Origin: a virus
Taxonomy: Duplodnaviria; Heunggongvirae; Uroviricota; Caudoviricetes
DNA: 9,587 nt
Reading direction: 5' to 3' (one strand)
Virus record (IMG/VR): IMGVR_UViG_3300011888_000033
Span: 1-9,587 of that record
The position numbers and the translations under genes were made by a program. Positions 1-9,587 of this stretch are shown here, one piece after another. How positions within the stretch are numbered: the stretch's first letter is position 1; each line of letters opens with the position of its first letter. Under the pieces are notes generated by a model. It saw nothing but the letters and a program-made list of their open reading frames with translations. It was not told the origin of the DNA and did no database searches.

Positions 1-153
1 GCATGTTTTTGTGGTCAGGTTACGAATATATAGTTTTCGCTTTTTAATATTGTTTGCCGAGGCAATATATGTCCGGCCTTCATGAAGAACATAATCGCCA
101 GGAGTCACACACTGACGTGGTATTTCATCAGTTCCGAAGTGATGTGCAATCAT
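1..153 (-). CDS. kilR: KilR-like killing protein (FtsZ inhibitor of Rac prophage); 3' end lies beyond the window
   Basis: Reverse complement of 1..153 translates from the ATG at 153..151 as [51 protein letters not shown] and runs off the window edge; this matches my recollection of the Rac KilR N-terminus. An in-frame ATG four codons upstream (165..163) is an alternative start. Absent from the ORF track because it is partial. Confidence 0.7.
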
Positions 154-594
154 AATTATCTCCATTTTTACAAATGAACTTTGTTGATGCGGTGCCTGGT
201 GCCTCCAGGTGACTGCAACCAGTTAACAATTACAGTCGGCTTTCCCACCCAAACCAATAAGGACTAACATGACTTTTAACTGTGCCACGTGCGCTTAGCC
301 GCATTCACCGCATCACAAAATTCACTTTAAAAAGGGCGGACATCAGCCGAACTTCAAGAAAAAAACTGATGCCGCCAGGACTACACACAGCAATGTCGTT
401 ATTTACAACCGGAGGCGCACTCCCTCCATTTAAATTTAACAGACAAGACCGACTCTTTATGGATATCGGAAATGCGCCTTCGTGTTGTGCCCGGTTTTAT
501 TTCACCACCTCCGGGCTTCGGTGGTCTCGGCTATACCCCTACAGCGAGAGCTTGTGTTAACATTTCAATACCCTTACAGTTGAGAGTTATTGAT

Positions 595-1077
595 ATGTTG
601 GATGTATTTACTCCATTGTTGAAATTTTTTGCTAACGAGCCACTCGAAAGACTTATGTATACGATTATCATTTTTGGTCTCACTCTCTGGCTGATACCGA
701 AAGAGTTTACTGTCGCATTCAATGCTTATACTGAAATACCTTGGCTCTTTCAGATTATCGTTTTTGCCTTTTCTTTCGTGGTCGCCATTTCCTTCTCAAG
801 ATTGCGAGCACATATTCAAAAGCATTATTCATTACTACCAGAGCAACGAGTATTGCTTCGTTTATCTGAGAAAGAAATCGCTGTATTTAAAGATTTCCTT
901 AAAACAGGAAATCTTATTATCACTTCTCCTTGCCGTAACCCGGTTATGAAAAAATTAGAACGGAAGGGCATCATTCAACATCAGAGTGATAGCGCAAACT
1001 GTTCTTATTATCTCGTCACCGAAAAATACTCCNNNNNNNNNNCATTTTATGAAGTTATTCTGGAACAGCAGGAGTAG
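595..1077 (+). CDS. sieB: SieB-like superinfection exclusion membrane protein (160 codons, interrupted by an N-run)
   Basis: Part of track ORF 472..1077. The ATG at 595 is preceded by GAGAG about 8 nt upstream. The product has hydrophobic segments (IIIFGLTLWLIP, IIVFAFSFVVAISF) typical of a small inner-membrane protein. It is divergent from kilR, as in Rac. Stop TAG at 1075..1077. Contains 10 N at 1033..1042. Confidence 0.65.
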   Translation: MLDVFTPLLKFFANEPLERLMYTIIIFGLTLWLIPKEFTVAFNAYTEIPWLFQIIVFAFSFVVAISFSRLRAHIQKHYSLLPEQRVLLRLSEKEIAVFKDFLKTGNLIITSPCRNPVMKKLERKGIIQHQSDSANCSYYLVTEKYSXXXXFYEVILEQQE

Positions 1078-1089
1078 ACGTTTTAATCG

Positions 1090-1245
1090 TTAGCTTACTG
1101 TGTGCTTCTCCAACCATCGGCGCGCACCAGTTTCGGTTTTAAATGTTTTGCTTTTGGTATACGTCATGGCAGTGAACGTTCCATCCTGGTTGGGGAACAC
1201 GCCGCACACCAGGGATTCGTTGTTGCCGAGGTCGATTTTTTGCAT
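1090..1245 (-). CDS. ydaF: Small protein, 51 aa, YdaF-like
   Basis: Hand translation of the minus strand from ATG 1245..1243 to stop TAA 1092..1090 gives MQKIDLGNNESLVCGVFPNQDGTFTAMTYTKSKTFKTETGARRWLEKHTVS. Length and position (convergent with sieB) match Rac ydaF as I recall it. Not in the ORF track (below its length cutoff). Confidence 0.6.
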   Translation of the reverse strand: MQKIDLGNNESLVCGVFPNQDGTFTAMTYTKSKTFKTETGARRWLEKHTVS

Positions 1246-1255
1246 TTTGCGAATC

Positions 1256-1390
1256 TCACATCTTGTTGCTACGTATAGCGACTTCTGCCTGCCAGAGATC
1301 CCAGTCGTTGCTGCGTAAAGCCTGCACAGCCTGGTTGTAAGTGATACCGCAACAATCCATCAAATACTGAACTACTTCGTAATGCACCAT
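1256..1390 (-). CDS. ydaG: Small protein, 44 aa, YdaG-like
   Basis: Minus strand ATG 1390..1388 to stop 1258..1256 gives MVHYEVVQYLMDCCGITYNQAVQALRSNDWDLWQAEVAIRSNKM. AAGGGG lies about 9 nt upstream of the ATG. Its stop is 10 nt before the ydaF start. Length matches Rac ydaG (44 aa) as I recall it. Confidence 0.55.
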   Translation of the reverse strand: MVHYEVVQYLMDCCGITYNQAVQALRSNDWDLWQAEVAIRSNKM

Positions 1391-1555
1391 CTTATCTATC
1401 CCCTTAACGCCGGGTGGCGGAACTAACTGCTGCACTGCAAAATTTGAATCCCGCCGTCATGTTCATACGCCTCGGGCTGGCTACTTAACCCCTGACCACT
1501 GCCTGGTAACTCGAAGTATTGCCCGGCGTTCTGTGGGGCGGGGTGGGTTGGTAGG

Positions 1556-1606
1556 TATATAATGTACTTTGTGTTCATCATTGTAAAGTACTTTAAGTAC
1601 ATTTTA
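1556..1606. promoter_or_regulatory. OL-like operator/promoter region left of the repressor gene
   Basis: AT-rich block with a perfect TATAAT (1558..1563). Dyad elements: AATGTACTT (1561..1569), the perfect 10-bp palindrome AAAGTACTTT (1585..1594), and AAGTACATT (1595..1603), which is the reverse complement of the first. The same ATGTACT 7-mer recurs twice in the racR-ydaS intergenic region. Confidence 0.4.
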
Positions 1607-1677
1607 TGTATAAAAAAATGAGACGGGATAAAGTGAAGCACAAACCCGGAGGGGGACGCTACCGGATTTATGCTGGT

Positions 1678-2097
1678 TTAAGAGGCTTTTTGTTTTTTCT
1701 TTCGTGCTAACTCTTCGTAAATTGCATTGTACTTCTGTTTTTTCTCCTCAAGAGTTTTTAAAAGTTCATCTGTCTCACTGTCAGGGAGCTCGTCCAGAAG
1801 GTCAATGATGATTTTTTGTCTTGGATTTAACTCCTGATAGAAACGTATCTGTCCACTTTCTTCTGTATCCTCTCCCAAAAGATAGGTTGGTGTTGTTCCA
1901 ATGAGTGTTGCTAATTCCCTTAATTTCTCTCGGCGAGGAATTGTTTCACCATTAAACCATTTGCTAACCGCTTTTGGTGTTAATTTCATTCGACGGGCAA
2001 TTTCTGCCTGCCTTCCATGTTGTTCATAACCAGCGTTTTCACAGGCTAGCGCAAGCCTACTGGCGAACTCTTTACGCGCTTTATCTTCATGAACCAT
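1678..2097 (-). CDS. racR: Prophage immunity repressor, HTH (XRE-like), RacR-like
   Basis: Track ORF, 139 aa. HTH-like segment QAEIARRMKLTPKAVSKWFNGE. Divergently arranged with the Cro-like gene across a short operator-bearing spacer. Acidic/basic C-terminal tail. Confidence 0.7.
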   Translation of the reverse strand: MVHEDKARKEFASRLALACENAGYEQHGRQAEIARRMKLTPKAVSKWFNGETIPRREKLRELATLIGTTPTYLLGEDTEESGQIRFYQELNPRQKIIIDLLDELPDSETDELLKTLEEKKQKYNAIYEELARKKKQKAS

Positions 2098-2176
2098 AAG
2101 TTCAATGATATTCGCTCTTGAATGTACTGTCAGTTCTGTTATAGCATGTACTCAAAGTTCACATTGTGAGGGTGAT
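2098..2176. promoter_or_regulatory. OR-like divergent promoter/operator region between racR and ydaS
   Basis: 79-bp spacer between divergent starts. ATGTACT appears at 2122..2128 and 2146..2152 (direct repeat, 24 bp apart). Small dyads ACTGtCAGT (2126..2134) and CACAtTGTG (2160..2168). GAGGG RBS sits just before the ydaS ATG. Confidence 0.45.
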
Positions 2177-2431
2177 ATGAACCAGAAAACACTTGAAGAT
2201 GTAATCAAAACTGTTCGCGTTTCTGTTGTGGCCGACGTTTGTGGTGTCAGCCAAAGAGCAATCTACAAATGGATGGATAACGGAAAATTGCCTCGCACAG
2301 AATATACCGGCGAAACAAATTACGCTGAAAAAATCGCTCATGCATCAAACGGATTATTTTCTGCCGATGCAATTTTAACTATTGGCAGAAATAAAACTAC
2401 TACGAAAAAGCTGATGGGAGTTGATTCATGA
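2177..2431 (+). CDS. ydaS: Cro-like HTH regulator, YdaS-like (84 aa from the chosen start)
   Basis: In-frame part of track ORF 2105..2431. I prefer the ATG at 2177 (GAGGG RBS), because the ATG at 2105 would place the start 8 nt from the racR start with no room for a promoter. HTH-like VADVCGVSQRAIYKWMDNGKLP. Its stop overlaps the ydaT start (ATGA at 2428..2431). Confidence 0.6.
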   Translation: MNQKTLEDVIKTVRVSVVADVCGVSQRAIYKWMDNGKLPRTEYTGETNYAEKIAHASNGLFSADAILTIGRNKTTTKKLMGVDS

Positions 2432-2850
2432 AAATCAAGCATGAGCACATCGAATCAGTGTTGTTAGCCCTGGCAGCCGAGAAAGGGCAGGCGTGGGTCG
2501 CTAACGCAATTACTGAAGAATATCTGCGCCAGGGGGGCGGCGAATTGCCCCTGGTACCAGGCAAGGACTGGAACAATCAGCAGAATATCTATCATCGTTG
2601 GTTGAAAGGTGAAACGAATGCGCAAAGGGAAAAAATTCAGAAACTGATCCCTGCGGTTCTGGCAATTCTTCCTCGCGAGCTGCGTCACCGACTCTGCATC
2701 TTCGATACCCTGGAACGCCGTGCATTACTGGCGGCACAGGATGCACTGAGTACGGCAATTGATGCGCATGATGATGCAGTCCAGGCCGTTTACCGTAAAG
2801 CACATTTCAGCGGCGGCGGTTCTCCTAGCGATTCTGTCGTAGTGCATTGA
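2428..2850 (+). CDS. ydaT: YdaT-like protein (toxic partner of the RacR-YdaS-YdaT cassette)
   Basis: Track ORF, 140 aa, which matches the Rac YdaT length as I recall it. Translationally coupled to ydaS through the ATGA overlap. Synteny racR / ydaS-ydaT. Confidence 0.65.
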   Translation: MKIKHEHIESVLLALAAEKGQAWVANAITEEYLRQGGGELPLVPGKDWNNQQNIYHRWLKGETNAQREKIQKLIPAVLAILPRELRHRLCIFDTLERRALLAAQDALSTAIDAHDDAVQAVYRKAHFSGGGSPSDSVVVH

Positions 2851-2895
2851 TTGAAATTAATCGTACCGAACTGTTTTGTTCGGTATCAGTTAAAT

Positions 2896-2914
2896 GTAAC
2901 GCTGCGAGCGTTAC
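2896..2914. repeat. 19-bp dyad-symmetric repeat GTAACGCT-gcg-AGCGTTAC, copy 1 (non-coding, just upstream of the ydaU RBS)
   Basis: Perfect 8-bp inverted arms around a 3-bp spacer, followed by ACAA. Same motif at 3088..3106 and 3295..3313. Confidence 0.6.
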
Positions 2915-2927
2915 AAGGTGAAAACAA

Positions 2928-3716
2928 ATGGCTTCAAACTGGATAAAGCTCGAAGTTATTACGCCGGATAAGCCGGAAATATTCAGGCTTGCTGAGATTC
3001 TGAATATTGATCCAGATGCCGCATTAGGGAAAGTCATTCGCTTCTGGGCCTGGGCGGATCAACACATGATAGACGGTAACGCAGAGTGTAACGCTCGCGG
3101 CGTTACAAAAAGTGCAATAGATCGCATCACTTTTATGGCTGGTTTTGCTGATGCGTTAATTCAGGTTGGATGGCTGGTCGAAACTAATGGTGTGTTGTCG
3201 CTTCCTAACTTTGAGCGCCATAACGGGAAAAGCTCTAAAAAACGGGCGGTTACAAACGAGAGAGTAACAAAAATACGAGAACTGAAACGAAAAGGTAACG
3301 CTGCCAGCGTTACAAAAACGGATCAAAAAGCGTTACCAGAGGAAGAGAAAGAGGAAGATATAAATACTTATCTCCCCCTAAATCCCCCTCGCCAAAAACG
3401 AGCGTCTAAAAAATTCGAACCGGAGGCTATCGAGCTGCCTGACTGGTTGCCGGAAACACTCTGGCATGAGTGGGTTCAGTTCAGGCAGGCATTGCGAAAA
3501 CCGATTCGAACGGAGCAGGGCGCTAACGGGGCGATACGGGAGCTGGAAAAATTCCGCCAGCAGGGTTTTTCACCTGAGCAGGTGATTCGACACAGCATCG
3601 CCAACGAATACCAGGGCTTGTTCGCGCCGAAAGGTGTTCGACCTGAGACGTTACTCCGACAGGTTAACACCGTCTCGTTACCGGATAGTGCGATCCCGCC
3701 AGGCTTCAGGGGGTAA
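2928..3716 (+). CDS. ydaU: Replication initiation protein (O-like / YdaU-like)
   Basis: Track ORF, 262 aa. Sits immediately upstream of the DnaC-like loader gene. Has a central low-complexity basic/acidic linker (KSSKKRAVTNERVTKIRELKRKGNAASVTKTDQKALPEEEKEED). The dyad repeats lie inside and just before the gene, recalling lambda ori inside gene O. Confidence 0.65.
   Translation: MASNWIKLEVITPDKPEIFRLAEILNIDPDAALGKVIRFWAWADQHMIDGNAECNARGVTKSAIDRITFMAGFADALIQVGWLVETNGVLSLPNFERHNGKSSKKRAVTNERVTKIRELKRKGNAASVTKTDQKALPEEEKEEDINTYLPLNPPRQKRASKKFEPEAIELPDWLPETLWHEWVQFRQALRKPIRTEQGANGAIRELEKFRQQGFSPEQVIRHSIANEYQGLFAPKGVRPETLLRQVNTVSLPDSAIPPGFRG
3088..3106. repeat. 19-bp dyad repeat GTAACGCT-cgc-gGCGTTAC, copy 2 (inside ydaU)
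   Basis: 7 of 8 arm positions are symmetric. A left half-site GTAACGC lies at 3076..3082. Followed by ACAAAAAG. Confidence 0.55.
3295..3313. repeat. 19-bp dyad repeat GTAACGCT-gcc-AGCGTTAC, copy 3 (inside ydaU)
   Basis: Perfect 8-bp arms. Right half-sites GCGGTTAC (3246..3253) and AGCGTTAC (3329..3336) nearby. Followed by an A-rich stretch. Confidence 0.55.
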
Positions 3717-3722
3717 CTGACC

Positions 3723-4412
3723 ATGAAAAATATTGCGACAGGCGACGTTCTTGAACGTATCCGCAGACTGGCCCCGTCACATGTAACCGCGCCATTCAAG
3801 ACGGTAGCGGAGTGGCGCGAGTGGCAACTTTCCGAAGGCCAGAAACGTTGTGAGGAGATCAACCGTCAGAATCGTCAGTTGCGGGTGGAAAAAATTCTGA
3901 ATCGCTCTGGCATCCAGCCATTGCACCGCAAATGCTCGTTTTCGAATTACCAGGTGCAGAACGAAGGGCAGCGATACGCGTTGAGTCAGGCGAAATCCAT
4001 CGCTGATGAACTGATGACCGGGTGTACAAATTTTGCGTTCAGCGGAAAACCTGGTACCGGGAAGAACCACTTAGCGGCAGCTATCGGGAATCGCCTGCAC
4101 GCCAGCTATGACGACGGGCAGTCAGGCGAAAAATTTTTGCGGGAACTGTGCGAAGTGGATCTGCTGGTTCTTGATGAAATTGGCATTCAGCGCGAGACGA
4201 AAAACGAGCAGGTGGTACTGCACCAGATTGTTGATCGCCGGACAGCGTCGATGCGCAGCGTGGGGATGCTGACAAACCTGAACTATGAGGCCATGAAAAC
4301 ATTGCTTGGCGAGCGGATTATGGATCGCATGACCATGAACGGCGGGCGATGGGTGAATTTCAACTGGGAGAGCTGGCGTCCGAATGTCGTCCAGCCAGGA
4401 ATTGCGAAGTAA
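3723..4412 (+). CDS. ydaV: DnaC-like helicase loader (IstB/DnaC AAA+ ATPase), YdaV-like
   Basis: Track ORF, 229 aa. Walker [16 protein letters not shown], Walker [10 protein letters not shown], and a DnaC-like C-terminus ([22 protein letters not shown]...[10 protein letters not shown]). The ATG is 6 nt after the ydaU stop. Confidence 0.8.
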
Positions 4413-4434
4413 TTTTTACCGGGAGAAAAATTTA

Positions 4435-5184
4435 ATGGAGACTGTTTTTGACGCACTGAAAGCAATGGGAAAAGCCACATCCATAGAACTTGCTGCGCGA
4501 CTTGATATCAGTCGTGAAGCAGTGCTGAACGAACTATGGGAACTGAAAAAAGCTGGTTTCGTTGATAAAAGCGCGTACACCTGGCGTGTGGCTGATAACA
4601 ACGTTCAGCAGGAACAGCCAATGCAGGCAGAACTGCCGGAAGAAACCACCACGGCAACTGTAGTGAAAATCTCAGAGTGCGATTTAACCGCGACGATTGA
4701 ACAACGCGGACCACAAACGGCGGATGAACTGGCTACGCTGTTCGGTACAACACCCCGCAAAGTTGCTTCAACGCTGGCAATGGCAATCAGCAAAGGACGC
4801 CTGATTCGCGTAAACCAGAACGGTAAATTTCGTTACTGCATACCGGGCGATAATTTACCAGCAGAGCCGAAAGCTGCATCGGTAACGGAAACTGATTTTA
4901 AAGCCTTTCCTCAGCCAGCAGGTGTTGCGTTACCGGTACAGAAAGATGCAACACAGGAAGATATTAAAACAGAAACTGTAGCGGACATTGTGCAGTCGCT
5001 GCCATCGTTTACTGCAACGCGAGAAGATGATTTGATTTTGCCATCGCTGCATATGGCAAACCGCGAACTGCGTAGGGCGAAGAATCATGTCCAGAAGTGG
5101 GAGCGAGTCTGCGCCGCGCTGCGGGAGCTGAACAAGCACTGGGATATTGTCCATAAAGTTATTGCAGCAGGTATGGAGAAATAA
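4435..5184 (+). CDS. Conserved prophage protein, possibly DUF1627-like, with an N-terminal winged-helix-like segment; function unknown
   Basis: Track ORF 4384..5184. I prefer the ATG at 4435 (GGGAG about 9 nt upstream; 249 aa), because the ATG at 4384 lies inside ydaV. N-terminus [43 protein letters not shown] resembles a MarR/winged-helix fold. Family name is from memory, not searched. Confidence 0.5.
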
Positions 5185-5369
5185 ATACTCCTGATTATAT
5201 GAGTCATCCTGCTGCAGTTGTGACCAATATGATCGGTTGTGCAGAGTTCTTCAGATAGGGGTAATGAAAACTGCGGTGATTTGTATTCGCTGCAGTTAAT
5301 ATAAACTCGTCGAATTTTTTCATGAAATGTGATCTTAGTCATATTTATATCACGTCTATTTATCAGGTT

Positions 5370-5385
5370 CTGATGAAATCATCAG
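5370..5385. promoter_or_regulatory. Perfect 16-bp palindrome CTGATGA-AA-TCATCAG upstream of the 689-aa gene (candidate operator)
   Basis: 7+2+7 perfect dyad, 52 bp upstream of the ATG at 5438, within an AT-rich leader. ATCAGG also appears at 5362..5367 and 5380..5385. Confidence 0.3.
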
Positions 5386-5437
5386 GTGTTAAGATACTAT
5401 TTGTGCTGTCACCTCAATGGGTTAAAAAGGAATCTGG

Positions 5438-7507
5438 ATGAAAGGTAATATTCTTGGGGATATCCGAGCTGAACATGACGAAAAGATGTTGGAAGCTTCA
5501 TTTTGGCAAACAACTGATTATAAAGCTCTTCTCGAATCCTACGATCGATGCATCATTGTTGGCCGCAGAGGAACAGGAAAAAGTGCTCTGGTGCATATGC
5601 TTTCCAAACATTGGCATGCTAAGCCAAAAACCTATGTGATGACTATTAGTCCGGTTGAAGAACAAATTATTGGATTAAGGGATGTTATTTCTTTATTTGG
5701 TGAAAATTACTTACATATAAAAGCCGGTAGCAAGTTAGCATGGCGATATGCTATTTATATGGAGCTGCTTTCTGAGATCGCAAGTCATTACAAGATGAAA
5801 AACGATCTTGACTACAAAAGTGTAGAGTCGCATTTATTATCTTGGGGACCGAAGAGACAAAATATAAGTAGCAAAATAAGAAAAAAATTGAACGCTATTC
5901 TCGATGATAACAAAAATATAAAACCAGCTACAAGAATAGCCGAATTATCCGATAAATTTGAACTTGACTTATTGGAAGAGGTGATAGAAGAAGCAATTTC
6001 GAAGTCAAATAATCAATTTGTTATTTTTGCTGATAGGCTTGATGAAGGCTATACACCGGATAATCTTGGTGTTGCAATAGTTGATGGTTTCATTCAGGCT
6101 GTGATTGATATAAAACAAAATATGAATGAAAAGGTTATTGCCTTTGCATTTGTTAGAGATAATATTCATCGAGCCATATCAAAAATGGACCCTGATTTTA
6201 CTCGAAATATTGAAGGGCAAGTACTGAGATTACATTGGGATGAATATAACTTGTTTAATCTTGTATGCAATAGAATGAGGGTCGCTTTTAACTCAACCAT
6301 TGAGAACAACACGAGGGTGTGGAATGCTTACACCGCAAATGAATTACAGTCTAATACCGGTTTTAAAGAAACATTGAAACTGACTCTATATAGGCCAAGA
6401 GATATTTTGGTTTTGTTAAATAATGCATTCTTGCGAGCAAACACACATGATCGTAATCGTATTGTCATTGATGACATTCAAGCAACAGCGAATACTATTT
6501 CACAAAATAGACTCAATGATTTGTTAAAAGAATATGAGAATGTATTTCCTGCATTAGATATATTTACATCGCAATTTGCTAATAGCAAACCTTACTACAG
6601 TGTTTCTGAAGCGTCATCTAAGATACAATATGCCCTTGATCTCAATGGCGTTATTGACAAGATGAAAATGCAGGATTTACTTCTTTTTGAAGGGCCAATC
6701 CAGGTGATTCAACGACTTTACAGTGTTGGATTTATTGGGTTGTATAACCAGCAGTCATCTTCATATGTATTTTGCCATGACGGTAAGGAACCTGAAAAAG
6801 AATTTACACCAGATTCAAAATTGCTATTGCATCCATGCTACTGGCTAGCATTAAGTGTTCATGAATCAGAGATGACTCCCGATGCTGCTGATGATATTCA
6901 TGATGAATATGATATTGAGGTCAGCTCTGTTTCCGAAGAGCAGAGGAAACAACGAATCGGTTCGTTGCTCCAAGAACTACATAATATACCTGAAGGACCT
7001 GAAGGTGCTGTCGATTTTGAAGCATGGGCGCTCAAAACTATAAAGTTACTATTTGCTACGAATTTAACGAACATTGAGTTGCATCCCAATAAAAATGGGT
7101 TGCAGCAAAGAGATATTATAGCGACAAATATAGCTGACACTCCAGTTTGGAAGAGAATTCTGACAGATTATCAGACACGGCAAGTTGTTTTTGAAGTGAA
7201 AAACTATAAAACATTAGGTGCTGCAGAATATAGACAGGTAAATTCCTATTTGTTTAAAGACTATGGGCGGATAGCTTTTATCATAAATAGAGATCACACA
7301 GAGAATTTAGAAAAACATAAAGAGCTTACGTGGGTAAAAGAAATTTATGATAATCATAATAAATTAGTTGTGAAGTTACCCTCTAAGTTCCTTGAAAGGC
7401 ATCTGTCAAAAATGAGAAGCCCGCAAAAACATGACGAAGTTAATAAACAATTAGGTAAACTGCTCGATCAGTACATAAGGGTCTATTTAAATAATAAATG
7501 TAAGTAA
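5438..7507 (+). CDS. Candidate anti-phage defence protein: N-terminal P-loop ATPase fused to a C-terminal PD-(D/E)xK-like nuclease (689 aa); family not assigned
   Basis: Single long track ORF with AAGGA RBS 6 nt upstream. Visibly AT-rich relative to flanking prophage genes. Walker A GRRGTGKS (aa 42-49, nt 5561..5584). Walker B-like VIFADRLDE (nt 6020..6046). C-terminal motif DFE(528)AWALK ... RD(559)IIATN ... VVFE(586)VK(588)NYK (nt about 7013..7201) fits the E/D/ExK catalytic pattern of restriction-endonuclease-fold nucleases. Followed by an intrinsic terminator. Confidence 0.75.
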   Translation: MKGNILGDIRAEHDEKMLEASFWQTTDYKALLESYDRCIIVGRRGTGKSALVHMLSKHWHAKPKTYVMTISPVEEQIIGLRDVISLFGENYLHIKAGSKLAWRYAIYMELLSEIASHYKMKNDLDYKSVESHLLSWGPKRQNISSKIRKKLNAILDDNKNIKPATRIAELSDKFELDLLEEVIEEAISKSNNQFVIFADRLDEGYTPDNLGVAIVDGFIQAVIDIKQNMNEKVIAFAFVRDNIHRAISKMDPDFTRNIEGQVLRLHWDEYNLFNLVCNRMRVAFNSTIENNTRVWNAYTANELQSNTGFKETLKLTLYRPRDILVLLNNAFLRANTHDRNRIVIDDIQATANTISQNRLNDLLKEYENVFPALDIFTSQFANSKPYYSVSEASSKIQYALDLNGVIDKMKMQDLLLFEGPIQVIQRLYSVGFIGLYNQQSSSYVFCHDGKEPEKEFTPDSKLLLHPCYWLALSVHESEMTPDAADDIHDEYDIEVSSVSEEQRKQRIGSLLQELHNIPEGPEGAVDFEAWALKTIKLLFATNLTNIELHPNKNGLQQRDIIATNIADTPVWKRILTDYQTRQVVFEVKNYKTLGAAEYRQVNSYLFKDYGRIAFIINRDHTENLEKHKELTWVKEIYDNHNKLVVKLPSKFLERHLSKMRSPQKHDEVNKQLGKLLDQYIRVYLNNKCK

Positions 7508-7516
7508 TTCAATCTT

Positions 7517-7548
7517 TACCGAAAGATCATGTATCTTTCGGTATTTTT
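7517..7548 (+). terminator. Rho-independent terminator of the 689-aa gene
   Basis: Perfect 11-bp stem TACCGAAAGAT (7517..7527) / ATCTTTCGGTA (7533..7543) with 5-nt loop CATGT, then TTTTT (7544..7548). Begins 10 nt after the stop codon. Confidence 0.6.
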
Positions 7549-7639
7549 AAGTGAGAGTAATCAAAATCGTAATGAGAGCTATATAATAATCTGTATAGAT
7601 TAATTTACGAACGATTCAACATTTACCGTTATTATGACG

Positions 7640-7765
7640 GTGCAGGTTGCAAGGAAAGACCTCTGCGAGGTACGAATCCGAACCGACCAGACGGAGGTCG
7701 CTGTCTTCACAGCTTACGAACTTGGGGAGTAAGAGGACCAGCGGGGAGAAATCCCCGCAACCTCT
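7640..7765 (+). other. GC-rich hairpin-dense non-coding element inside the AT-rich island (candidate structured RNA); strand and function unknown
   Basis: No credible ORF. 7-bp stem with GAAA tetraloop (7741..7758). Hairpin GACCTC.../...GAGGTC (7658..7665 with 7692..7699). Hairpin CTTAC/GTAAG (7713..7717 with 7729..7733). Possible closing helix AGGTT/AACCT (7644..7648 with 7759..7763). A perfect TATAAT sits at 7582..7587 upstream. Confidence 0.25.
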
Positions 7766-8195
7766 GATGTATTATGCATCCTCAACGCAGCCACAGTTAA
7801 CCTGATTGGCGGGTTTACTTCATCTGTAAATATTTTTATAAAAATAATGCCCACGCACAGCATAAAACAAAAAGTATTACAGATAAAAAAGGAACGTAAT
7901 GTACAGATTTGTTGTTTTCCATATTTACTCACCTTAATATGATTAACCCTGATAGGGCTGTTATTTCAGCGGTTTTCAAATGAGATATTATGGTGATCTG
8001 ACAAATTTGCATAACATTAAAATTTAATTTGTTTAACCGCTTTTAATAATAAGCGTTGTTTGTATCCCAGCAATCTGTTGTTTGGTCTTTATTCCATTAA
8101 GGTGGGGGCTTTACACTGGAACCAGTTTATTTATACTTTATACGTCAGCCTGAACAACTGGCATCTGCTGCACTGCGCCATCGAGAGATTGAGAA

Positions 8196-8894
8196 ATGGC
8201 GCATATACAACTGGTCAAACAAACTTCTTCTGGTTTACTTCTCCCGGCGACGCCGGAGAGTTGCGATTTTCTGCATCAAATCAAAATAGGTGAGTGGATA
8301 CACGCAGACTTTAAGCGTGTGCGTAACTACGCATTCCACAAGCGTTTTTTCAAACTCCTGCAACTGGGATTCGATTACTGGACTCCGGTCGGTGGGGCGA
8401 TCACGCCTCGCGAACGAGAACTGCTGTCTGGTTTCGTTGATTACCTGTGCGAATCAGTTGGTCGGGAACACACGCCAGCCCTGAGTGATGCCGCAGAGCA
8501 ATACCTTAACACCGTTGCGACTCGTAGAACCCGGGATACGGCGTTGCTAAAGTCGTTTGAGGCTTTCCGCGAGTGGGTAACCATTCAGGCCGGATTTTAC
8601 ACCGAGCATATTTATCCGGACGGTAGCCGTGGGCGTCGGGCAAAATCCATCGCTTTTGCGAATATGGACGAAGTCGAGTTTCAGCAGGTTTATAAATCTG
8701 TACTGAATGTGCTGTGGAACTGGATTCTGTTCCGTAAATTCTCCTCTCAGGAGGAAGTTGAAGATGTGCCAGATCAGAATCCCTGGCTACTGCAATCACA
8801 ATCCCGAAACCTCTGTGCTGGCGCATTACAGGCTGGCGGGGACGTGCGGAACAGCGACAAAACCACACGATATGCAGGCGGCGATAGCCTGTAG
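8196..8894 (+). CDS. Conserved lambdoid nin-region protein (possibly DUF1367-like); function unknown
   Basis: Track ORF, 232 aa, normal GC content. Position upstream of a YbcO-like gene and a Q-like gene fits a nin-region gene. Its 3' end overlaps the next gene by 131 nt, so the true stop may be earlier or there is a frame problem. Confidence 0.45.
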   Translation: MAHIQLVKQTSSGLLLPATPESCDFLHQIKIGEWIHADFKRVRNYAFHKRFFKLLQLGFDYWTPVGGAITPRERELLSGFVDYLCESVGREHTPALSDAAEQYLNTVATRRTRDTALLKSFEAFREWVTIQAGFYTEHIYPDGSRGRRAKSIAFANMDEVEFQQVYKSVLNVLWNWILFRKFSSQEEVEDVPDQNPWLLQSQSRNLCAGALQAGGDVRNSDKTTRYAGGDSL

Positions 8895-9021
8895 CTCATG
8901 CCACGATCTAATCGACGGGCGGGTAAAAACCAGCGATTACACCAAAGAAGAATTGCGCCTGATGCATGCTGAAGGGGTTTTTCGCACACAAGAAATCTGG
9001 AGAAAGAAAGGTCATTTATGA
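8764..9021 (+). CDS. YbcO-like small Cys-rich putative nuclease (DUF1364-like)
   Basis: Part of track ORF 8707..9021. AGGAGG lies 8 nt before the ATG at 8764. MCQIRIPGYCNHNPETSVLAHYRLAGTCGTATKPHDMQAAIACSSCHDLIDGR resembles DLP12 YbcO as I recall it (CQVRIPGVCNGNPETSVLAH...TKP...IACSACHD). Alternative start at ATG 8707. Stop overlaps the next gene (ATGA at 9018..9021). Confidence 0.55.
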   Translation: MCQIRIPGYCNHNPETSVLAHYRLAGTCGTATKPHDMQAAIACSSCHDLIDGRVKTSDYTKEELRLMHAEGVFRTQEIWRKKGHL

Positions 9022-9560
9022 TTTACCCAACGAATACAGGAAAAAGCGGAGAACACCTTCGCCTCACCACGCTGGAAAGTGTCTGGATTCAGGGAAAACT
9101 ACGTATGTGGGGGCGCTGGTCGTATATTGGCGGTGGCAGGTCAGGGAATATGTTCAATCAGTTGTTGGCATCCAAAAAACTGACGAAAACAGCCATTAAT
9201 GAAGCCCTGCGCAGAATGAAAAAAGCGGGAATAGAGAAAGCTGAGCTGGAAGCGTTTTTGCGAGAGATGATCAACGGCAAGCAAAAGAGCTGGCTGGCGC
9301 ATTGTACTGATGCAGAGGCGTTATGTATTGATCGAGTCATAAGTGAGGTGCTGGCAGAGCATCCAGGATTGATTTGCATTCTCCGGCAACGCTATGAAGG
9401 GCGGGGGATGGCTAAGCGCAAAATGGCTGAATTGCTAAATGATGCACACCCAGAGTGGTGTTTTAGCACATGCGAAAAACGGATTGCTAATTGGTTAGCT
9501 GTTGCTGAGTATGCCCTATATATTCCCATGCGTGAATCATTTGCTGAGAAAATGGCTTGA
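9018..9560 (+). CDS. Putative late-gene antiterminator Q-like protein
   Basis: Track ORF, 180 aa, translationally coupled to the YbcO-like gene. It is the last gene before the window end, where a lambdoid Q would sit. RMWGRWSY resembles the RWGAW motif near the N-terminus of Q21/QuuD-type antiterminators. C-terminus is HTH-like. Assignment is by position and weak motif only. Confidence 0.45.
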   Translation: MIYPTNTGKSGEHLRLTTLESVWIQGKLRMWGRWSYIGGGRSGNMFNQLLASKKLTKTAINEALRRMKKAGIEKAELEAFLREMINGKQKSWLAHCTDAEALCIDRVISEVLAEHPGLICILRQRYEGRGMAKRKMAELLNDAHPEWCFSTCEKRIANWLAVAEYALYIPMRESFAEKMA

Positions 9561-9587
9561 TTTCTTACGTATAAACTGCTTCAATTT

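Follow-up and report, generated by a model that had tools for sequence, protein, structure and literature searches.

The replication initiator gene of a Rac-type prophage segment carries, within its coding sequence and directly before it, a dispersed set of 19-bp dyad-symmetric repeats, which are very likely the cognate binding sites of the N-terminal domain of the encoded initiator. The segment, hereafter called the window, is the whole stretch of 9587 bp that was analysed (positions 1 to 9,587 of the IMG/VR virus record IMGVR_UViG_3300011888_000033); it was found in approximately 680 of 5426 complete Escherichia coli genomes at a coverage of at least 80%. Based on sequence comparison, we estimate a probability of roughly 60% that the dyads, together with an adjacent polypurine AT-rich tract, form a prophage replication origin inside the initiator gene; possibly, they are autoregulatory in addition. 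We favour an origin because the sites lie in a replication module, are exchanged as part of a cassette, adjoin at site 2 a tract whose composition appears to be selected at the DNA level, and are the only iteron-like cluster of the window.

Dyads and half-sites in and before the initiator gene

The repeat unit is GTAACGCT-N3-AGCGTTAC. Its three full copies within 2896-3336, referred to as site U, site 1 and site 2 (Table 1), had been noticed in the initial annotation and were confirmed both by reading and by search; the distances between successive copies are 192 and 207 bp. Site U had been called non-coding, and it indeed lies between the ydaT stop (2850) and the initiator ATG (2928), ending 13 bp before the ATG and directly 5' of the AAGGTG ribosome-binding site. 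The near-perfect symmetry claimed for all copies is perfect in sites U and 2, and site 1 departs from it at one position. When we searched the window for the full dyad with up to three mismatches, these three were the only matches, compared to 0.01 expected, and none of 200 shuffled windows reached three copies. The heptamer GTAACGC occurs nine times in the window, eight of them within 2896-3336 (approximately one expected), and no repeat family of the entire stretch ranks above that of the dyad. Neither other iteron-like clusters in the 9.6 kb nor DnaA boxes above chance were detected.

Table 1 Features of the dyad region and neighbouring genes of the 9587-bp window.
Feature	Position	Strand	Description
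Site U, upstream dyad GTAACGCTGCGAGCGTTAC	2896-2914		non-coding
Lone half-site GTAACGC	3076-3082	+	12 bp upstream of site 1
Site 1, dyad GTAACGCTCGCGGCGTTAC	3088-3106		in N-terminal-domain coding sequence, aa 54-60
Site 2, dyad GTAACGCTGCCAGCGTTAC	3295-3313		in linker coding sequence
Lone half-site AGCGTTAC	3329-3336 (exact heptamer 3330-3336)	-	+36 from site 2 start
Polypurine AT-rich tract	3337-3420 (end approximate)	+	putative DNA-unwinding element
Specificity cassette	2849-3342		494 bp; spacer, N-domain coding sequence and linker; without K-12 Rac homology
sieB	472-1077
Helix-turn-helix repressor gene	1678-2097	-
cro/ydaS-like gene	ends 2431
ydaT	2428-2850
Replication initiator gene	2928-3716	+	262 aa; PHROG 2509 profile match
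ydaV	3723-4412	+	DnaC/IstB-like helicase-loader gene; Pfam IstB_IS21 and Bac_DnaA
DUF1627 gene	4384-5184

Three half-sites had been proposed besides the full copies. Those at 3076-3082 and 3330-3336 are exact and, as described below, stand at offsets that recur in relatives. The first arose by a duplication-like insertion of four codons (ECNA), which is also present in other Enterobacterales according to the protein alignment and the DNA of the relatives. The third, at 3246-3253 (GCGGTTAC), did not hold up: it matches at 5 of 8 positions and its offset is not recurrent. Nearby, at 3263-3271, the conserved peptide R112-V113-T is encoded by AGA GTA ACA and contains GTAAC on the plus strand; many relatives encode R-V-T as CGC GTT ACx, which creates a half-site of opposite orientation, GCGTTAC, at +335 and may be a coincidence.

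Conserved layout and DNA-level selection

A search with residues 1-140 of the initiator gave relatives of 40-74% identity, which are fused to varied C-terminal domains, e.g. the DnaT-like PF17948. Scans of genome and viral collections gave 151 loci, which were reduced to 55 representatives of at most 85% identity; in these, a site was accepted if it had no more than two mismatches in the 12 outer arm positions. The loci (labelled L below) come from Enterobacterales, Pseudomonas, Burkholderiales, Akkermansia and other Verrucomicrobia, Planctomycetes and Ignavibacteria, and the sequenced phages with the N-terminal domain include TL-2011b, epsilon15, SPN1S, Xanthomonas CP2 and Pseudomonas PAN70. 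Since the next gene is lambda-P-like (L060, L066, L053) or DnaB (L017, L031) in distant loci and DnaC-like in the window, the N-terminal domain always heads an initiator-plus-loader or initiator-plus-helicase module.

Of the 55 representatives, 49 have site 1 at +148 to +160, counted from the ATG, and 47 have site 2 at +334 to +424. Both were present in 45, with a spacing of 189-264 bp (median 211), compared to a calculated chance of such a match of approximately 0.005 per locus for the intervals searched. In phage TL-2011b, the two dyads are canonical and located at +148 and +357. Of 54 representatives, 11 (Enterobacterales, Verrucomicrobia) have a further dyad in the non-coding sequence before the gene, at -21 to -60; in the E. 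coli alleles the arms of this site U are invariant and the central three nucleotides vary (GCG, TAC, GTG, CAC, CTG). Five relatives without canonical site (L058, L063, L069, L072, L015) revealed no other repeated perfect dyads. Phasing of the inter-site distances was uninformative, as periods of 10-11.5 bp gave similar R values and unique spacings gave p = 0.12; such a spacing analysis cannot show looping. We also rejected occurrence on plasmids as a sign of autonomous replication, with two records only, both phage-sized.

This conserved layout bears on the suggestion, made in the initial annotation, that the repeats are partly deleted iterons. The spacing of about 200 bp is unlike the tandem iterons of lambda, which would speak for a decayed array; nevertheless, both decay and a chance cluster are ruled out for practical purposes by the 0.01 copies expected by chance and by a two-site layout that is kept in 45 representatives from several phyla, in the viable phage TL-2011b and, with a different dyad and the two sites 279 bp apart, in epsilon15.

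The lone half-sites are likewise ordered. GTAACG or CGTTAC outside full dyads occurs at 2.99 per kb between -100 and +500 compared to 0.31 in the flanks, a 9.5-fold enrichment. The preferred offsets from the dyad start are -12 on the plus strand and +24/25 and +36 on the minus strand, which puts the half-sites 11-12 bp, or roughly double this distance, beyond the inner arms. The plus-strand half-site at -12 is the commonest lone half-site position in the relatives and the minus-strand one at +36 recurs in 10 of them, and in the window the two lone half-sites stand at just these recurrent offsets, -12 from site 1 and +36 from site 2.

The repeat also encodes the peptide NAxxVTK, as had been noted before: residues 50-61 read GNAECNARGVTK and residues 123-130 GNAASVTK. 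The dyad could thus be a by-product of a peptide repeat that the protein requires, and the near invariance of G50, N51, A52, V59 and T60 in the protein alignment is in line with such a requirement. Against it, one copy is non-coding, and the reading frame of site 2 is 1 in 35 relatives, 0 in seven and 2 in five, giving by frame the unrelated peptides xNAxSVT, VTxxAL and xSRxxRD, so that the DNA alone is constant. The peptide of site 1, moreover, lies in a loop that is modelled with lower confidence and tolerates a four-residue insertion. Codon usage points in the same direction. Site 1 encodes G-N-A-x-S-V-T, in which Gly is GGT in 42/51 cases compared to 53/216 in other conserved Gly columns (p = 2e-14), Val is GTT in 44/53 compared to 63/208 elsewhere (p = 3e-12), Ser is exclusively AGC (31/31, elsewhere 79/411, p = 5e-21) and Asn exclusively AAC (43/43, elsewhere 82/108, p = 8e-5), all by Fisher tests that ignore phylogeny. 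Third positions carry 1.0-1.7 bits of information within the dyad and approximately 0.1-0.2 bits at the other four-fold sites of the same alignment; this background is saturated and, thus, shared ancestry does not explain the signal of the dyad. Arm positions 7, 8, 12 and 13, which were not used in picking the sites, are conserved as well, extending the arms to the 8-bp sequences GTAACGCT and AGCGTTAC. These results indicate that the dyads are under purifying selection at the DNA level, in agreement with the initial annotation, and the three reading frames and fixed synonymous positions leave a by-product of the peptide scarcely credible.

A similar preference was seen in the tract behind site 2. 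Purines make up 87% and A+T 67% of its core (3337-3366), which is continued by a low-GC stretch to approximately 3420; from 3343 onwards, the tract is common to K-12 Rac. In 47 relatives, the region from +30 to +80 after the site 2 start has an A+T content 15-17 points above that of the locus and is about 85% purine on the coding strand. Because the Arg codons in the tract are mostly AGA or AGG (67/82, compared to 143/859 elsewhere in the same genes, p = 1e-33, again by a Fisher test ignoring phylogeny), its composition appears to be a choice at the DNA level beyond peptide composition.

Initiator domains, dyad variants and cassette exchange

The initiator matches PHROG 2509, 'replication initiation protein', over residues 1-262 (profile positions 1-277, E = 4.5e-88), and the 'O-like' PHROG 678 matches aa 76-236 only. 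No Pfam family was found for the 262-aa protein at E <= 0.01, the N-terminal part had no NCBIfam or Pfam match, and no solved structure was found for it. RefSeq names the protein 'hypothetical protein' and other alleles 'YdaU family / DUF1376'. It had initially been called YdaU-like, which applies to its C-terminal part: aa 139-262 are 81% identical to aa 162-285 of K-12 YdaU, whereas aa 1-138, to which all coding copies of the dyad belong, are not alignable to that protein. We therefore rejected the assignment as a DUF1376 YdaU, given this and the missing Pfam hit, and describe the architecture as an N-terminal domain (aa 1 to approximately 115) joined by a linker to the C-terminal domain (aa 139-262). 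An AlphaFold2 model had a mean predicted local distance difference test (pLDDT) score of 68, with N-terminal blocks 11-40 and 61-90 at 85 or higher. The modelled N-terminal domain consists of helices 16-25 and 29-48, a loop (49-60), helices 61-68 and 73-80 and a beta-hairpin (84-91). The peptide of site 1 maps to the loop between the helices, whose pLDDT is approximately 61. Foldseek against the PDB gave nothing significant for this domain, and weak matches to winged helices hint, in the model, at a winged-helix-like fold.

The dyad sequence varies together with this domain. A subfamily with His for Asn51 has the dyad GTCACG-N7-CGTGAC, in which both arms have changed symmetrically. The variant is present at both sites in L060, L044, L065 and L066, at site 2 in L064 (where site 1 reads GTCAC...GTGAC with three mismatches) and at site 1 only in L035; L032 has an imperfect dyad variant with two arm mismatches. 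The more distant initiator of epsilon15 (L154) is 34% identical and lacks the GNAxSVT loop. Its gene contains two perfect GTCCGC-N7-GCGGAC dyads at 1566-1584 and 1845-1863 (+65 and +344), which keep the 6-N7-6 geometry; the second directly precedes a tract coding for REEKRRED, and the pair is a candidate for the origin of epsilon15. In the reverse direction, the exact pattern GTAACGCTNNNAGCGTTAC retrieved 80 viral contigs. In 76 of these the dyad lay in or next to an open reading frame (ORF) matching the N-domain profile, and in two it was too near to the contig end to be judged. The remaining two (L212, L225) have no recognisable N-domain ORF near the dyad and represent either chance matches or an unrecognised initiator variant. 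The N-terminal domain alone is the constant partner of the dyad, as C-terminal domains and neighbouring genes vary. By these comparisons, the dyads co-vary with the N-terminal domain and are diagnostic for it.

These variants are also relevant for the possibility that the palindromes act as RNA or single-stranded DNA hairpins, in mRNA stability, translation control or primosome assembly. Such a role is conceivable for the intergenic copy, but as an explanation of the repeats it is highly unlikely. It is the arm sequence itself, beyond its pairing, that is conserved across phyla, and compensatory variants are few (GTCAC/GTGAC as the only one among loci with recognisable dyads and, in epsilon15, GTCCGC/GCGGAC), while hairpins kept for their structure should move through many complementary pairs. 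In addition, asymmetry is frequent at positions 7/13 and 8/12 of the inner stem, and the half-sites 3076-3082 and 3330-3336 cannot pair and yet stand at conserved offsets.

A comparison with K-12 Rac had been proposed in the initial annotation as a way to recognise lost repeat copies. It revealed an exchanged cassette with repeats of its own. By blastn, the window aligned to K-12 Rac at 2422-2848 (ydaT) and from 3343 onward only, with 92-99% DNA identity on either side of the unaligned cassette, which nearly coincides with the interval given in the initial annotation and contains every dyad and half-site. GTAACG-N7-CGTTAC is absent from K-12, and the equivalent part of K-12 ydaU carries other repeats, GATGTTCAAAC. 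In a 4.6-kb locus of the K-12 type (L001, strain DH1), six of nine matches to GATGTTCAAAC fall into ydaU (2088-2506), compared to 1.7 expected for the whole locus. They cluster at +390 to +460 of K-12 ydaU and include an inverted copy; weaker copies are at +146 and +231. We consider these repeats a candidate for oriJ at the sequence level. Because the non-homologous stretch holds all sites and the K-12 cassette has its own repeats, the alignments indicate that the N-terminal domain and the repeat set were exchanged together, and that both prophages have the AT-rich tract, C-terminal domain and loader gene in common.

Other DNA-binding proteins encoded in the window were considered as ligands of the dyads and rejected. 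Binding by RacR or YdaS, as initially suggested, is unlikely: there is no GTAACG motif in the divergent repressor-cro intergenic region (2098-2176), and the immunity repressor and the Cro-like protein are not conserved across the phyla that have the dyad. The CII-like YdaT recognises TTGATT-N6-AATCAA (PMC9986795, PMC11879457), and the dyads differ from this motif. At 2421-2438, overlapping the ydaT start codon, the window has a perfect copy of it, TTGATTCATGAAAATCAA, and a second copy with two mismatches, TTGATTGAAATTAATCGT, lies at 2847-2864, overlapping the ydaT stop codon, 426 bp from the first and about 30 bp before site U. As YdaT reportedly forms tetramers that can hold two DNA sites, binding to both copies could enclose ydaT in a DNA loop. 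The spacer between ydaT and the initiator gene further contains a hairpin, TACCGAAC-N6-GTTCGGTA, at 2863-2886, directly before site U; for the 90-nt intergenic RNA, two adjacent hairpins are predicted (z = -3.5), without a T-run on the plus strand.

Downstream of the initiator gene, ydaV has an in-frame deletion of 57 bp with its junction near 4098, as compared to K-12 and strain L73. The 19 residues lost (LKDGQTVIVVTVADVMSAL) directly follow Walker A in an alignment with YdaV of K-12 and of strain L73, and the loader encoded in the source strain is probably inactive. Because YdaV lacks these residues, the replication module may be inactive in this strain, with the cis-elements nonetheless intact. 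An ORF of 689 aa at 5438-7507, where strain L73 has other genes, has an N-terminus resembling P-loop, STAND and ORC-CDC6 proteins. Its match to PDC-M36A, a candidate defence family of PADLOC, is weak (E = 3e-11), and it possibly represents a prophage-borne gene for defence against phages.

Proposed origin function and comparison with known systems

We propose that dimers of the winged-helix-like N-terminal domain would bind each GTAACGC-N5-GCGTTAC dyad and that extra protomers may occupy the lone half-sites at about 12 bp, or multiples thereof, from the dyad arms. At site 2 (3295-3336), the protein-DNA complex would then destabilise the adjoining tract (3337 to approximately 3420), and the C-terminal domain of the initiator would recruit the DnaC-like loader YdaV with host DnaB. 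Sites 1 and U, each about 200 bp away, could be auxiliary and maybe raise the local initiator concentration by looping, and site U, by the ribosome-binding site, may add negative autoregulation.

Alternatively, the dyads could be bound by the initiator and yet be purely regulatory, by autorepression or as a transcriptional roadblock limiting initiator and loader, with the origin elsewhere. A number of observations weigh in this direction. Perfect dyad symmetry is typical of operators, site U adjoins the ribosome-binding site just before the ATG, and only one full dyad adjoins the AT-rich tract. The Rep proteins of iteron plasmids, furthermore, repress their own synthesis via inverted repeats. 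On the other hand, a simple consensus scan of 2851-2927 revealed no sigma-70-like promoter, and the initiator gene is probably transcribed from an upstream early promoter. Site U is the least conserved copy, while the two intragenic ones are near-universal, and the DNA-selected polypurine tract directly after site 2 is nothing that an operator would need. The window offers no other iteron-like cluster, and the sites are swapped as a module with the DNA-binding domain, as in lambdoid ori/O. We consider a purely regulatory role unlikely on balance and an origin at the dyads the preferred interpretation.

More tentatively, and with somewhat less than even odds, the origin could be self-embedded, the recognition dyad being part of the very sequence that codes for the DNA-binding domain (loop G-N-A-x-S-V-T) and recurring in the linker. 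If this were true, any change of specificity would require simultaneous changes in the protein and in both DNA copies. Such a mutual lock would explain the near-unchanged 19-bp site from Enterobacterales to Planctomycetes and Verrucomicrobia, as well as two or three dimers about 200 bp apart in a looped complex in place of a tandem array.

Initiators of this family are widely distributed among the temperate phages and prophages of several bacterial phyla, and the family has neither a Pfam model nor a described origin. The present analysis supplies a precise cis-element for it, consisting of the 19-bp dyad, the ordered half-sites and the polypurine tract. It is an unusually clean case in which DNA selection overrides codon choice and even fixes a peptide loop. 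The natural variants GTAACG, GTCACG and GTCCGC are ready-made specificity controls, the dyad pattern alone identifies the replication module in metagenomic viral contigs, and the dyad could define replication-specificity (incompatibility-like) groups among Rac-like prophages. In the literature on oriJ, ydaU, the motif and the replication regions of non-lambdoid Stx phages, we found no published description of these sites or of binding sites or an origin of any PHROG 2509 member. This profile, whose name is a bioinformatic annotation, includes initiators of the TL-2011b type, with those of epsilon15, SPN1S, Xanthomonas CP2 and Pseudomonas PAN70 being more distant.

One of the closest known systems is the Rac prophage of K-12, for which an active origin, oriJ, has been reported (PMC3945230, Fig. 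S3 legend); we found no sequence-level definition of oriJ in the literature searched. The gene order of repressor, cro-like gene, ydaT, initiator and ydaV is the same, the C-terminal initiator domain is closely similar, and ydaU also carries a repeat family. The N-terminal region of YdaU, in contrast, is of the DUF1376 type, and its repeats are GATGTTCAAAC-like, direct and inverted, instead of GTAACGC dyads.

In iteron plasmids, dimers of the Rep protein (pPS10 RepA, F RepE, R6K pi) on an inverted repeat repress rep, and monomers on iterons initiate replication. A winged-helix-type initiator, as weakly suggested by the model, and the combination of inverted repeats and lone half-sites of the same sequence would resemble this arrangement, and site U, close to the beginning of the gene, could correspond to their autorepression element. 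Unlike in these plasmids, there is no predicted promoter at site U, sites lie inside coding sequence, no sequence relationship of the Rep_3 type was detected (no Pfam hit), and the family is nearly absent from plasmids (2 records).

In lambda ori, 19-bp repeats with internal dyad symmetry are located within gene O, between the DNA-binding N-terminal domain and the loader-engaging C-terminal domain, and are followed by an AT-rich, strand-asymmetric tract. In the lambdoid phages 434, 21, 82, phi80 and P22 (gene 18), the N-terminal domain of O and the repeats are exchanged as a cassette, and the iterons differ between close relatives. The comparison with lambda made in the initial annotation is consistent with our results: the repeats are 19-bp dyads within the initiator gene (site 2 and its half-site in the linker, site 1 in the N-domain coding region, with binding at these sites presumed), an AT-rich strand-asymmetric tract is adjacent, the helicase-loader gene lies directly downstream, and N-terminal domain and repeats are swapped as a cassette and co-vary. 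Unlike in lambda, there is no tandem array of at least four iterons; the dyads stand singly, some 200 bp from each other, with flanking half-sites roughly 12 bp off the arms, and the initiator has no detectable homology to the O N-terminus (Phage_rep_O; no Pfam hit). A further difference is that one site is inside the coding sequence of the DNA-binding domain, which presumably reads this very site, and this is unusual. Equally unusual are the conservation of the recognition sequence across bacterial phyla, which sets it apart from lambdoid iterons, and the conserved, dispersed layout with a spacing of approximately 200 bp.

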